A DNA stretch of 64,000 bases from an uncultured bacterium (GCA_963701085.1 OY969561.1:64001-128000); one strand, 5' to 3'. Numbered from the stretch's first letter, positions 36,294 to 48,981 are shown. The notes: a model not told the origin generated them from the letters alone. Program-made: numbers and translations.

Positions 36294-36378
36294 GGCGAGG
36301 TTCCCGAGCGGCCAAAGGGGGTGGACTGTAAATCCATCGGCTATGCCTTCGCTGGTTCGAATCCAGCCCTCGCCACCA
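36294..36378 (+). tRNA. tRNA-Tyr(GTA)
   Basis: 85 nt with long variable arm, anticodon loop CT GTA AA. Confidence 0.96.
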
Positions 36379-36405
36379 GACTACGCTAAAGCTTCGTCTG
36401 GCAGG
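36376..36405 (+). repeat. Family A 30-mer starting at the tRNA-Tyr CCA
   Basis: CCAGACTACGCTAAAGCTTCGTCTGGCAGG, followed by a second CCA. Confidence 0.9.
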
Positions 36406-36481
36406 CCATCTTTTTAAAGGTTGGTTAGAATTATCAAAAAAACTTGGTAATTTAAAAAGATTAAGAAAACAATTGAAATGT

Positions 36482-36557
36482 GCGGGAATAGCTCAATTGG
36501 CAGAGCGACAGCCTTCCAAGCTGTAGGTTGCGAGTTCGACCCTCGTTTCCCGCTCCA
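36482..36557 (+). tRNA. tRNA-Gly(TCC)
   Basis: GCGGGAA/TTCCCGC acceptor stem, anticodon TCC. Confidence 0.96.
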
Positions 36558-36570
36558 GAAAAGTTATAAG

Positions 36571-36646
36571 GCCGGCGTAGCTCAGTTGGTAGAGCAGCTG
36601 ATTTGTAATCAGCAGGTCACTGGTTCGAATCCTGTCGCCGGCTCCA
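36571..36646 (+). tRNA. tRNA-Thr(TGT)
   Basis: GCCGGCG/CGCCGGC acceptor stem, anticodon TGT. Confidence 0.96.
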
Positions 36647-44712: not shown

Positions 44713-47700
44713 TCAAATGCTAGAACGTTTTAAAGAATATATAAACGTTACCCGCTTTAATGTTATTAAAATTAGTCTTGCTTCTCCAAAAAAAATTCGC
44801 TCGCTATCATATGGTGAGGTGAAAAAAATTGAGACAATCAACTATAGAACATTAAAGCCTGAACGGGATGGGTTGTTTTGTGCTCGTATTTTTGGTCCGG
44901 TAAAAGACTGGGAATGTAATTGCGGAAAATATAAACGCATGAAGCATCGCGGTATTACTTGTGAAAAATGTGGCGTTGAAGTTATTCAGTCACGTGTTCG
45001 CCGTGAAAGAATGGGACATATTCAGCTTGTTGCGCCAGTGTGTCATATCTGGTATCTCAAGGGAATTCCGAGTTATCTTGGATTGATTCTTGATATGCCA
45101 GTGAAAGATTTAGAGCGTGTCATTTATTTTGATATGCACATGGTTGTTAGACAAGGTAAGTCTCCGTATCCGGTTAAGACGTTGTTGAGTGCAACTGAGT
45201 ACGAGAACTATATCATGCAACGTGCTGATGATACTGCATTCTTAGCTGAAATAGGCGCGGAAGCGATCCGCCTTGTTCTCAGTTTCATGGATTTAAAGAT
45301 TGAAGTGGAAAAGCTTCATTCTGATTACGCTCATACAAGTTCTATTGCAGTACGTCATAAAATAACGCGTCGTATGAAAGTGATAACTGGTCTTATTAAT
45401 GGTGCTATCAGTCCTGAGTGGATGATACTTACCGTTTTACCAGTTCTTCCACCAGATTTACGACCATTAGTACCGCTTGAAGGCGGCCGCTTTGCAAGTT
45501 CTGATTTAAATGAATTATATCGTCGTGTTTTGAATAGAAATATTCGTTTACAAAGACTTATTGAAATTGATGCTCCTGGTGTCATTATTAAAAATGAAAA
45601 ACGCATGCTGCAAGAGTCAGTTGATGCGCTTATTGATAATGGTAGAAGAGGCCAGCCTGTACGTGGATCTAATAAACGTCCATTGAAATCATTAAGTGAA
45701 ATGCTTCGTGGTAAACAGGGGCGTTTCAGACAAAATCTTCTTGGACGTCGTGTTGATTATTCAGGACGATCCGTGATTGTTGTAGATCCGGAATTACGTA
45801 TGGATCAATGTGGTATTCCAAAAGTTATGGCATTAGAGTTGTTCAAACCTTACATTTATGCAGGACTTATTGAACGTGAACTAGCGTCTAATATGCGTGT
45901 TGCGCGTCGTATGGTTGAAGAGCTTGAGCCGGAGGTATGGGATGTTTTAGAAGATGTAGTAAAAAATAGACCTGTGCTATTGAACCGTGCACCAACATTG
46001 CATCGTCTCGGTATTCAGGCGTTTTATCCTATTTTAGTGGATGGTAAGGCAATTAAAATTCATCCGCTTGTTTGTTCTGCATTTAACGCCGATTTTGATG
46101 GTGATCAGATGGCGGTGCATTTACCATTGAGTAAAAAGTCTCAATTGGAAGCTGAAGCATTTAATTTTATCCACAAACAATATTCTTTCACCGTCAAATG
46201 GCCGTCCTGTAACTGTTCCTTCTCAAGATATGGTTCTTGGGCTTCATTTTATGACTAAGGTTCGTAAAGGATCCCGCGGAGAAGGTATAGTGTTTTCAAA
46301 TGTTGCGGAGGTTGTTGTTGCCTTTCAATGTGGTAGTGTTGATCTTCATGCACTAATAAAATTACGTTTATTTGATAATGAAATTGTTGAAACTACGGTT
46401 GGACGTGTCTTGGTTTATGAAGCATTACCAGAAGGTTTTGCGTTCCAAGCAGTTAATAAAATATTAAAGCGCAGTGATTTGGGCAAATTGATAGATATGG
46501 TGTATTACCAATTTGGTAAAGAGGCAACGGTATTATGCTTAGATAGAATCAAGCATCTTGGATTTTACTATGCCACCATTTCAGGTATTTCACTTTCTAT
46601 TGATGATCTTATTGTGCCAGCTGAAAAAGATGCCATTGTTCATAAGGCTGAAAAAGAAGTTGAAAAAATTGAATCGTTATATATGGATGGCGTTATTACC
46701 AATGGTGAACGCTACAATAAAGTAGTTGGTATTTGGAGAGATTCAACCGCTGCTGTTGCACAATCTATGTATAATGAACTTAATGCTGCTGACAAAAAAG
46801 TTTTTGCTAACGAAGATCATCTTAATAAGCCTTTTAGCCCAGTATTTATGATGTTGGAATCAGGGGCTCGTGGAACAAAAGATCAGGTTAAGCAGCTTGT
46901 TGGTATGCGTGGGTTGATGTCAAAACCGACTGGTGAAATTATTGAAATACCAGTTAAATCAAACTTTAAGCAAGGACTAAGTGTTTTTGAGTATTTCATT
47001 TCAACTAATGGTGCTCGTAAGGGACAGTCAGATACTGCGCTGAAAACAGCAAGTTCTGGTTATCTTACTCGCCGATTAGTAGATGTTGCTCAAGATGTAG
47101 TTATAACAATCAATGATTGTAATACTCTTGGTTATTTAGAAATTTCAGATTTGAAAGAAGCCGGAGATACGGTGTATCCAATGGGTAAACGTGTATTTGG
47201 ACGTGTACTTGCTGCGGATCTTAAGGATCCAGTGAGTGGCGAGCTTCTTTTGAGTCGTGGAGATATTGTAACTCGTGAAATAATGGCGAAGCTTGATGGC
47301 TCAGCGGTGGTTAAGGTTCTTGTTCGTTCAGTTCTTTCTTGTCGGGCTAAACGTGGCGTTTGTTCGTTGTGTTATGGTTATGATTTGTCTAAAGGAAGAT
47401 TGGTTGATGAAGGAACAACCGTTGGTATTATTGCAGCGCAATCAATTGGTGAACCGGGAACTCAGCTTACCATGAGAACATTCCACATTGGTGGTTTGGC
47501 GAGTGGTCTTACAGAGCAACCGTTTATTAATGCAAAATATGATGGAACGATTGAGTGGCATGGTGTTCGTGTAGTGATTGATCCACAAGGGCACATGGTT
47601 GTTATGAGTAGAAAAGCTCGACTGCTTATTGTTGCTCAAGATGGTCGTGAATTACAGCAGCATCCTCTTGAATATGGTTCTATTGTTTATGTTAAAGATA

Positions 47701-48834
47701 AGCAACAAATTGTAGCAGGTACAAAACTTGCGGATTGGGATGCAAACAATAAAGTTCTTATGACTGAAAAAGCCGGAACTGTTGTTTACGTCGATCTTAT
47801 AAAAAATGTAACTATTCAAGAACGTTTTGATGAAGCAACGGGTAAATCAAGAACTATCGTCATGGGAACTCGTGGTGAGCAATATCAGCCAGCAATTAGT
47901 ATTGTTGATGAGAGAGGGGAAGAGTTAACTCAATATTTCCTTCCTGAGGGTTCTTACGTTAACGTTGTAGAAAAACAACGTGTTGATATTGGTGACGTTC
48001 TTGTTAAAATGCCTCGTGAAGTTGCAAAATCAAAAGATATTACAACCGGTGGTTTACCTCGTATTGCAGAGCTTTTTGAAGCGCGGATTCCAAAAGATGC
48101 AGCTATTTTATCTGATGTAGATGGAGAGGTTGTTATTGGAGGATTACATCGTGGCTTTAGAAAAGTAAGCGTTGTAAGCGGTGCAGATCGTCACGAATAC
48201 TTGGTTCCACGCGGTAAACAGTTGAACGTTGTTGATGGTGAGCACGTAAGTGCGGGAGATCCATTAACAGCAGGGGCTCCTGTTTTACATGATATTCTGC
48301 GTATTTTGGGAGCTGAAAACGTTCAACGTTATTTGGTTGATCAAATACAGGAAATTTATCGTTTACAAGATGTTGATATTAATGATCGACATATTGAATT
48401 GATTGTTCGTCAAATGTTGCGTAAAGTTCGTGTTGTAGAAGGTGGAGATAGCGATTTTCTTATTGGGGATCGTGTGGATTACATCCATTTTCAAACAGTG
48501 AATAGCTGCATTGCGTGCTCAGGGTAAACGTCCTGCGGTAGCAAAACCGATGTTGATGGGAATTACTCAGGCTTCATTGGGAACAGAAAGCTTTATTTCT
48601 GCTGCGTCATTCCAAGAAACAACAAGAATTCTAACAGAAGCAGCAGTGAGCGGACAAATTGATCATCTATTTGGCTTAAAAGAAAACGTGATTGTAGGAA
48701 AATTAATTCCTGCAGGAACGGGTGTTAAGTCCTTTAGAAAAAGATATTTAGGCGATGATCTTTCTGATTTGGAGCGACAAGCTCAAGATGGAGAGCGTCG
48801 TGAAAGTGGAGATAGTTCAGCATCTGGGCTATAA
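44705..48834 (+). CDS. rpoC: RNA polymerase beta' subunit, interrupted by two single-base insertions (near 46160 and 48504)
   Basis: NADFDGD active site, [37 protein letters not shown] spread over three ORFs that join after deleting one base at each site. Confidence 0.97.
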
Positions 48835-48846
48835 ACATGGGGTTAT

Positions 48847-48921
48847 AGGCGCGTAGCTCAGGGGCAGAGCATTGCTTTGACGTAGCAAGGGTCAGCGGTT
48901 CAATTCCGCTCGCGCCTACCA
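48847..48921 (+). tRNA. tRNA-Val(GAC)
   Basis: AGGCGCG/CGCGCCT acceptor stem, anticodon arm TTGCT-TT GAC GT-AGCAA. Confidence 0.95.
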
Positions 48922-48981
48922 TACTTCGCCCCATCCTTCGCTGAAAGCTTCGGAGGACACGGCAAGGCTTCGTATGGCACG
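48919..48981 (+). repeat. Family A element at tRNA-Val CCA with a second family A copy nested in its loop (about 48931-48962)
   Basis: CCATACTTCGCC[CCATCCTTCGCTGAAAGCTTCGGAGGACACGG]CAAGGCTTCGTATGGCACG. Confidence 0.87.

Follow-up and report, generated by a model that had tools for sequence, protein, structure and literature searches.

A palindromic repeat joined to the CCA ends of tRNA genes in the Dependentiae

A 64,000-nucleotide stretch of DNA from an uncultured bacterium (GCA_963701085.1, OY969561.1:64001-128000), hereafter the window, contains eight tRNA genes (ARAGORN), three of which run without a break into a short palindromic repeat that we call family A. The window lies within a single 1,198,634-bp contig of 37% G+C; the genome that holds it, G000, comes from a small intracellular bacterium, which NusG-neighbourhood loci place in the order Babeliales of the Dependentiae (TM6). 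The three carriers, all on the plus strand and all called by both ARAGORN and the Rfam tRNA model, are tRNA-Tyr(GTA) (36294..36378), tRNA-Thr(TGT) (36571..36646), and tRNA-Val(GAC) (48847..48921), with encoded CCA ends at 36376-36378, 36644-36646, and 48919-48921, and in each the CCA forms the first three bases of a plus-strand hairpin. On tRNA-Tyr (36376..36401; minimum free energy (MFE) -9.3 kcal/mol), CCAGAC (36376-36381) pairs with GTCTGG (36396-36401), enclosing a three-by-three internal loop and GC-GC apical pairs. On tRNA-Thr(TGT) (36644..36670; -7.5 kcal/mol), CCATAC (36644-36649) pairs with GTATGG (36665-36670), and the same two arms (48919-48924 and 48972-48977) close the tRNA-Val hairpin (48919..48977; -20.6 kcal/mol), which holds a second family-A copy in its loop (48930..48961, plus strand) and is followed, 9 nt further on, by a run of eight T residues (48987..48994). 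A sequence-only reading of the window had described this arrangement, and its account of the shared CCA bases, the matching right arms, and the share of tRNAs affected (three of eight) is borne out by the tRNA calls, the sequence, and the MFE folds.

At tRNA-Tyr and tRNA-Thr(TGT) the 3' arm of the hairpin extends as TGG-CAGG-CCA, which is the source of a second CCA that is absent at tRNA-Val. The CAGGCCA tails occupy 36402..36408 (second CCA at 36406-36408) and 36671..36677 (second CCA at 36675-36677), and at tRNA-Tyr the tail forms a TGGC..GCCA mini-palindrome with the 3' arm. Behind tRNA-Thr(TGT) the tail leads into a composite module. An AT-rich centre (36678..36728), comprising a T-run, AAAGGTTTGAC, and TGATAGCAGAA, is conserved across modules (alignment A2) and predicted to fold on itself; the distal 10-mer GCGAAGTATG (36729..36738) is the exact reverse complement of tRNA positions C75..C84 (CATACTTCGC), with which it forms a helix in both the MFE and the RNAalifold consensus predictions; and a right-hand hairpin (36739..36765), which is a reverse-complement family-A unit, stands at the end of a 129-nt block (36647-36775) that is variable among relatives. 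Three tRNA genes nearby serve as element-free negative examples, all of them likewise on the plus strand: tRNA-Gly(TCC) (36482..36557), with 13 nt to the next tRNA start; tRNA-Thr(GGT) (36870..36944), which precedes an rpmG-like open reading frame (ORF) and is also bare in the relatives G001, G006, and G007; and tRNA-Trp (37158..37234), which precedes a secE-like ORF.

The association extends far beyond the window. All 35 tRNAs of G000 end in an encoded CCA (ARAGORN), and when the 100 nt downstream of each were read by eye, a hairpin starting at C74 was found at 23 of them and also at the tmRNA gene (885563-885932, minus strand). Seven of the 23 carry a further repeat nested in the loop and one, at tRNA-Asp, is a classical terminator; the ends of the RNase P RNA, signal recognition particle RNA, and 5S rRNA of G000 have no element. 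A fixed regular expression recovered 22 of the 35, missing Gln. The enrichment of the element at tRNA ends over other CCA sites, on which the sequence-only reading hung, is evident genome-wide: a loose stem rule accepted 25 of 36 tRNA/tmRNA ends (Cys wrongly counted in) and 1005 of 33,751 other CCA sites, and with a second CCA required within 10 nt the counts became 20 of 36 and 116 of 33,751. Hence the observation is confirmed, the association being far above chance. An earlier stem rule was dropped as too loose, and a test based on MFE (31 of 344 tRNA ends and 58 of 1500 random CCA sites in 80 loci) proved too insensitive, so explicit stem rules were used instead. The twelve element-free tRNAs are Ile and Ala, in the rRNA operon; Gly-TCC, Asn, and Cys, each with the next tRNA close behind; Thr-GGT, Trp, Pro, and Gly-GCC, each with a co-oriented gene behind; and three Met tRNAs.

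Family A is not confined to tRNA genes. With nhmmer we found about 96 copies of the unit in G000 (E<0.01), 40 within crude ORF calls and 56 outside them, and R1, a covariance model derived from 15 simple copies linked to tRNAs, returned 52 copies (E<=0.01). Copies elsewhere start with CCC or TCC and finish with GGG or GGA; the third stem pair, which is A-T in tRNA-linked copies, is C-G in these. No family among the Rfam 15 covariance models matches the element, the searches giving only tRNA, rRNA, and weak chance matches.

The hairpin consists of a 6-bp stem, a conserved three-by-three pyrimidine internal loop (TTC opposite TTC, sometimes TAC), two to five apical pairs, and a small loop. In all nine copies folded with RNAfold the CCA-paired hairpin is the MFE structure (-7.5 to -20.6 kcal/mol), with z-scores relative to shuffled sequences of only -0.4 to -3.0; its stability is thus not unusual. 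The pairing itself is conserved: in the 15 simple copies 94.5% of pairs are standard, both sides have changed at five of ten pairs, and none of 500 shuffles matched the observed pairing or covariation score. Many copies are part of a 95-125-nt composite module, in which a 10-mer located 72-87 nt beyond the CCA is an exact or one-mismatch reverse complement of C75..C84 and is followed by a family-A unit in reverse orientation. In G000 the 10-mer is exact in five of the 24 tRNA/tmRNA-linked copies and has one mismatch in two more. It covaries with the stem variants (TAC, ACC, GCC, GCT, TGC, TTC, ATC, GGC, and GTC), and a change from TTCGC to TACGC is mirrored in the 10-mer of two copies. Set beside MITE-type terminal inverted repeats, the resulting 10-nt inverted pair varies in sequence by copy and has a further hairpin outside it.

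The tRNA-Thr gene together with its module folds at -67.8 kcal/mol (z -2.66) using the distal helix, which also appears in the RNAalifold consensus for 29 modules; both predictions include a TGGC/GCCA mini-hairpin. In the 24-row alignment A2, pairing reaches 95.8% in the proximal hairpin and 100% in the mini-palindrome (23 of 23 scorable rows), from which it follows that the second CCA is one half of a conserved TGGC-n-GCCA mini-palindrome; the distal helix is 98.3% paired, a figure that is partly circular because rows were picked for having the distal 10-mer. C75-A76 of the tRNA are therefore predicted to have two mutually exclusive pairing partners, the proximal stem and the distal 10-mer. 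The conserved centre (TTGAC ... TGATAGCA) was also considered as a sigma-70-type promoter and rejected; the spacing is wrong, and promoter-like sites occur only elsewhere.

The element is widespread in the phylum. R1 matches 24 of 31 genomes in the set of relatives, G000 included, and 73 of 101 phylum-sampled genomes (E<=1e-4) representing 12 of 14 families, with other families scoring as highly as G000. In 80 Dependentiae nusG loci, 32 of 38 model matches begin exactly at a tRNA CCA, many with compensated stems, and a strict 6-bp stem followed by a second CCA occurs at 21 of 347 tRNA ends as against 59 of 12,518 other CCA sites. Further top matches in congeners fall at tmRNA ends and at a few sites without a tRNA or Rfam match. 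Comparison with relatives, which the sequence-only reading had proposed for orthologous tRNA loci, gave the following picture: every tRNA-linked copy inspected (G000 and three congeners, flanks read fully or partly) joins its gene at C74 and lies in sense, the same CCA junction recurs across the Babeliales with compensatory stem changes, and the carrier tRNAs and the subfamilies differ between congeners.

Evidence of movement comes from protein-coding DNA as well as from tRNA flanks. A 1137-aa ORF of the window (24319..27732, minus strand), conserved in eight relatives, hosts two 30-nt family-A units in frame: one in sense (25741..25770, minus strand; SDFAKASSDK) and one antisense to the ORF (27113..27142, plus strand; LPDEALAKSG) with CC on both flanks. 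Each is absent from seven of the eight orthologues. At the site equivalent to the first, G007 has a double insertion, and at the site equivalent to the second, G002 carries 81 inserted nt that run in the opposite orientation; the insertions of G007 and G002 at these two sites are independent. Nested and truncated copies are seen in G000 and in congeners. Judged from these sequence comparisons, family A is demonstrably mobile DNA.

At the tRNA genes turnover is equally plain. The regular expression that found 22 carriers in G000 found 17 of 34 in G006 and 20 of 34 in G007, and the carrier tRNAs are partly different. The dominant subfamily differs likewise, TAC in G000 (11 copies) and GTC in G007 (10 copies), and G006 has seven copies of the "C type". 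Within G007 the GTC paralogues share 59% identity over 110 nt, compared with 43% for copies on the same tRNA in G000 and G007. tRNA-Tyr has at least four element variants within the genus. Congeners differ in what follows tRNA-Thr(TGT): some have the 129-nt module, others an ordinary terminator or roughly 20 nt of unrelated sequence, and all share the flank beyond. In one relative (a Logan contig) the block 36647-36775 is swapped for 63 other letters. The congener G001 has no R1 match, and all 36 of its tRNAs are followed by AT-rich sequence without the element, apart from what may be a decayed remnant at Ser-GCT; the element is therefore dispensable, and a role in 3' processing is not required. 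In G001 the tRNA-tRNA spacers are also much shorter, those of the Val-Asn-Asp and Ser-Arg-Ser clusters, for example, spanning about 11-56 nt; the corresponding spacers of G000 measure about 100-125 nt and are largely module.

Taken together, the exact junction, the enrichment at tRNA and tmRNA ends, the stem covariation, the mobility, and the dispensability lead us to regard family A as probably a REP/RPE-like mobile palindrome, one subfamily of which is specific for CCA-ending RNA genes. The 30-nt hairpin unit, often part of the composite module, would be a small mobile palindromic DNA element, and the subfamily in question would integrate or be copied, in sense, exactly at C74 of stable RNA genes that end in CCA (tRNAs and tmRNA). 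Since its third stem pair is A-T rather than C-G, the CCA of the gene stays intact and has its complement in the 3' arm (nnTGG). In the precursor RNA, C74-A76 are predicted to lie in the 6-bp stem or, alternatively, C75-A76 in the 10-bp long-range helix with the distal 10-mer. Targeting may proceed by pairing of the element's xGG with CCx of the target on the exposed strand of highly transcribed RNA genes; insertion at C74 would be tolerated since the CCA is regenerated, and the trailer would be removed by RNase E/G and then by PNPase and RNase PH. Of the possibilities raised by the sequence-only reading, CC(A) target specificity and tRNA-linked insertion are well supported by the C74 junction, the sense orientation, and the mobility.

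Several observations weigh against this interpretation. G000 has no match to Y1_Tnp (PF01797, 0 matches), to RVT_1, or of TnpB type, DDE transposases and tyrosine recombinases not having been searched. PF01797 is matched in seven of 31 relatives (14 matches in G010, three in G007, and others in G004, G002, G014, G024, and G028). The IS200-like elements of G007, G010, and G004 are 570-680 bp long, encode a Y1 transposase of 142-161 aa, have end hairpins unlike family A, and are multi-copy in some congeners; the relatives' Y1 transposases were rejected as the driver, the ends of these elements being unrelated and not located at family-A copies. There is no replication-strand bias, 34 of 81 non-tRNA copies in G000 being sense on the leading strand. 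No tRNA locus examined offers a clean empty/filled pair, the whole post-CCA stretch being replaced between congeners, and a CC target duplication accompanies only one of three ORF insertions. For the latter two reasons the second CCA, which does follow the Tyr and Thr elements as the sequence-only reading had noted, is not confirmed as the duplicated target that it had been taken for. A 3-nt target alone cannot account for a preference for tRNA ends of more than 100-fold. Finally, families with NusG proteins only about 55-65% identical have kept the loop sequence, and both alternative helices covary; these facts fit selection on the RNA equally well.

Selection on the RNA is the substance of the best-surviving alternative, namely that family A serves primarily as a functional trailer at the 3' end of tRNA and tmRNA transcripts (a clamp, terminator, insulator, or processing signal) that is selected and spread by gene conversion, its other copies being by-products. 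The placement of the element invites this explanation: it is found mainly where a long spacer follows the tRNA or the tRNA ends a unit, and it is missing from the rRNA operon and from tRNAs that have another gene or tRNA about 6-45 nt downstream. G000, G006, and G007 have a set of bare tRNAs in common (Ala, Ile, both Gly, Pro, Thr-GGT, Trp, and two Met). Likewise, two congeners have an ordinary hairpin-plus-T-run terminator in the tRNA-Thr(TGT) slot, the classical terminator at tRNA-Asp of G000 has CCGCCA in its stem, compensatory changes conserve the proximal hairpin and the mini-palindrome at the percentages given above, and the loop sequence is conserved in 12 of 14 sampled families. Against it stand the 36 bare tRNAs of G001, the two congeners with only some 20 unrelated nt after tRNA-Thr(TGT), hairpin stabilities that are ordinary relative to shuffles, and the insertion of the same 30-nt unit into ORFs. 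The T-runs count against it as well: they begin 7-9 nt beyond the main hairpin and occur in only about 8 of 24 G000 copies, with none in the GTC subfamily. The elements thus differ from an intrinsic terminator, in which a T-run lies 0-2 nt after a G+C-rich hairpin; the tRNA-Asp variant, as an exception, is of that form. A consensus terminator scan of 36150-37300 called no terminator at the Tyr or Thr element.

Maturation is the other setting in which a trailer could matter. G000 has genes for RNase E/G, PNPase, RNase PH, and a PolyA_pol-family (CCA-adding-like) protein, with no RNase Z or RNB-family match, so that structured trailers would matter for maturation and an endonuclease would have to open the CCA-paired trailer before phosphorolytic trimming. 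A role in RNA 3'-end formation is possible. On balance, a repeat that moves, can be dispensed with, and truly prefers CCA ends accounts for the data better than a processing signal that the cell could not do without, and we consider the functional-trailer explanation unlikely.

A second alternative does away with targeting: insertion or duplication would be random, or tRNAs would have been duplicated with their flanks, and copies would survive at harmless tRNA ends. The genome is compact (about 86% crude ORFs), leaving few neutral sites; insertion at a CCA regenerates the CCA; and tRNA flanks are hypervariable between congeners. The counts already disfavour this explanation, and we hold it to be improbable. 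Retention alone is insufficient, because about a quarter of the copies, all with the same orientation and register, fall on 36 of about 33,800 CCA sites (some 0.1%); the 56 of 96 nhmmer copies outside crude ORFs indicate that intergenic insertion is tolerated elsewhere; and carriers that differ by species were not inherited through tRNA duplication. Least probable is a DNA-level recombination or binding site at tRNA genes, as for many integrative elements (an attC-like folded single strand, or a site for a nucleoid or recombination protein), for which the retention of structure under varying stem sequence, the conserved TGGC-n-GCCA palindrome and central motifs, and the 10-bp inverted ends of composite modules could be cited, but modules of 95-125 nt carry no integrated cargo between their ends, the inverted ends differ among copies, and no partner recombinase turned up, no search aimed at one having been made.

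We tentatively suggest a more specific mechanism, which we regard as possible though doubtful: family A could be a guide-directed mobile hairpin whose own nnTGG arm chooses NCCA on an exposed single strand, and/or a two-state RNA "CCA clamp". The clamp would alternate between the proximal hairpin and the distal 10-bp helix with its TGGC/GCCA mini-hairpin, and such a switch could make the freeing of the 3' end depend on transcription beyond the tRNA.

A number of further observations were made alongside these. The intrinsic terminator at the tRNA-Asp 3' end (G000 249097-249140) has the last six tRNA bases, CCGCCA, as its 5' arm, followed by T7, and keeps the family-A TTCGCTAAA motif. The sole PolyA_pol-family gene (G000 597933-598250, minus strand) has in-frame stops within the first 15 or so residues of the Pfam match, which may reflect a frameshift, a truncation, or an alignment artefact; its longest ORF, 404 aa from a TTG start, begins past those stops. 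A second repeat, family B (GCGCTCAYCCTGA...GTCGAAGGA), occurs in the window (27769-27840), where one copy is a perfect palindrome with 28-nt arms, and repeatedly lies inside the loops of family-A hairpins or encloses them; the tRNA-linked hairpins in which it is nested belong to Arg-ACG, Gln, Lys-TTT, and Phe (G000 56161, 494281, 844448, and 279953). A third CCA-anchored form, the "C type", consists of CCAnACTTTTA followed by a CCC-type hairpin and GCCC, and is found at tRNA-Val-TAC (G000 248817) and at many G006 and G007 tRNAs, including seven of 34 tRNA ends in G006. A full CCA-type module also stands at a shared non-tRNA site in three relatives (G010 1425600-1426500, G006 771600-772400, and G007 499400-500200), about 95 nt upstream, on the opposite strand, of a gene starting MINESAK, with a different subfamily in each. 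In G000, a non-tRNA family-A copy at 327400-327500 lies inside a longer hairpin (GTCTGGC...GCCAGAC) followed by T7, without an Rfam match; it looks like a terminator or the end of a small RNA. Elsewhere in the window, long 9-nt-periodic repeat arrays (4235-5640 and 7257-7914), read on the minus strand, are compatible with collagen-like Gly-X-Y proteins.

Small palindromic repeats such as REP, RPE, and MITEs are common, and how most of them move and choose their targets is poorly understood. With a target precise to the single nucleotide (C74), dozens of independent junctions per genome, and a presence in 73 of 101 genomes, family A offers a clean natural setting in which to look for the enzyme that moves it and for the rule by which its target is recognized. 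Most pre-tRNAs here are predicted to be born with the CCA base-paired and, as no RNase Z or RNase II/R-family match was found in the genomes searched, maturation must cope with a structured trailer. In the annotation of Dependentiae genomes, the 3' flanks of tRNAs, the spacers between genes, and some insertions in proteins should be masked or labelled as what they are, sequence derived from repeats. Guide-directed insertion or a CCA clamp, if true, would have no described counterpart among bacterial repeats or in tRNA maturation; our literature searches, supplements aside, returned nothing on CCA-fused repeats or on repeats of Dependentiae.

REP sequences and BIMEs are small imperfect palindromes present in high copy, often as inverted pairs with a spacer and mostly outside genes. 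Family A is comparable as a palindrome in high copy with inverted pairs, and of its 96 or so nhmmer copies 40 lie inside crude ORF calls, two of these being verified in-frame insertions. It differs in that it enters ORFs and has a fixed junction at the CCA end, and in that G000 has no Y1 (RAYT/IS200-type) gene, the Y1 genes of relatives residing in IS200-like elements with unrelated ends. Elements of the IS200/IS605 family (IS608) recognize their target by pairing with an internal guide beside a hairpin. The logic of family A is analogous, as the bases on its left (CCA or CCC) complement the foot of the hairpin (TGG or GGG) and its insertion is orientation-specific; however, with no cognate Y1 found, no strand bias, and ordinary Watson-Crick pairing within the hairpin, we do not claim membership.

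Dictyostelium TRE and yeast Ty3 are described as using tRNA genes as safe landing sites in gene-dense genomes (PMC5006619). Those are protein-coding retroelements near tRNA genes, whereas family A is a non-coding palindrome of 30-125 nt joined to the last bases of the gene, and an RVT_1 search found no reverse transcriptase in G000. Hairpins in the 3' trailers of CCA-encoding tRNA genes are likewise known from E. coli: a study of leuX describes a trailer terminator hairpin that is removed by PNPase or RNase P before 3'-end maturation, and places single-stranded A/U-rich nucleotides directly after the CCA of tRNA terminators, with the stem further downstream (PMC2811032). In family A, by contrast, the stem starts at C74, the CCA is paired, and the T-run is often absent or offset.

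The RPEs of a reduced intracellular bacterium are, in the accessible text on them, short palindromic repeats of 100-150 bp that occur both between genes and in frame within protein-coding regions, and their subfamilies proliferate in a lineage-specific manner (PMC1779305). Family A, likewise in a reduced intracellular bacterium, is also palindromic, is found between genes and in frame in an ORF (the two 30-nt insertions), and has lineage-specific subfamilies. Its unit is 30 nt long and its composite form 95-125 nt, and it belongs to the phylum Dependentiae; in that same text there is no mention of a precise tRNA-CCA fusion (PMC1779305). The closest described kind is the Rickettsia palindromic element, and the precision of its target is the unusual feature of family A.

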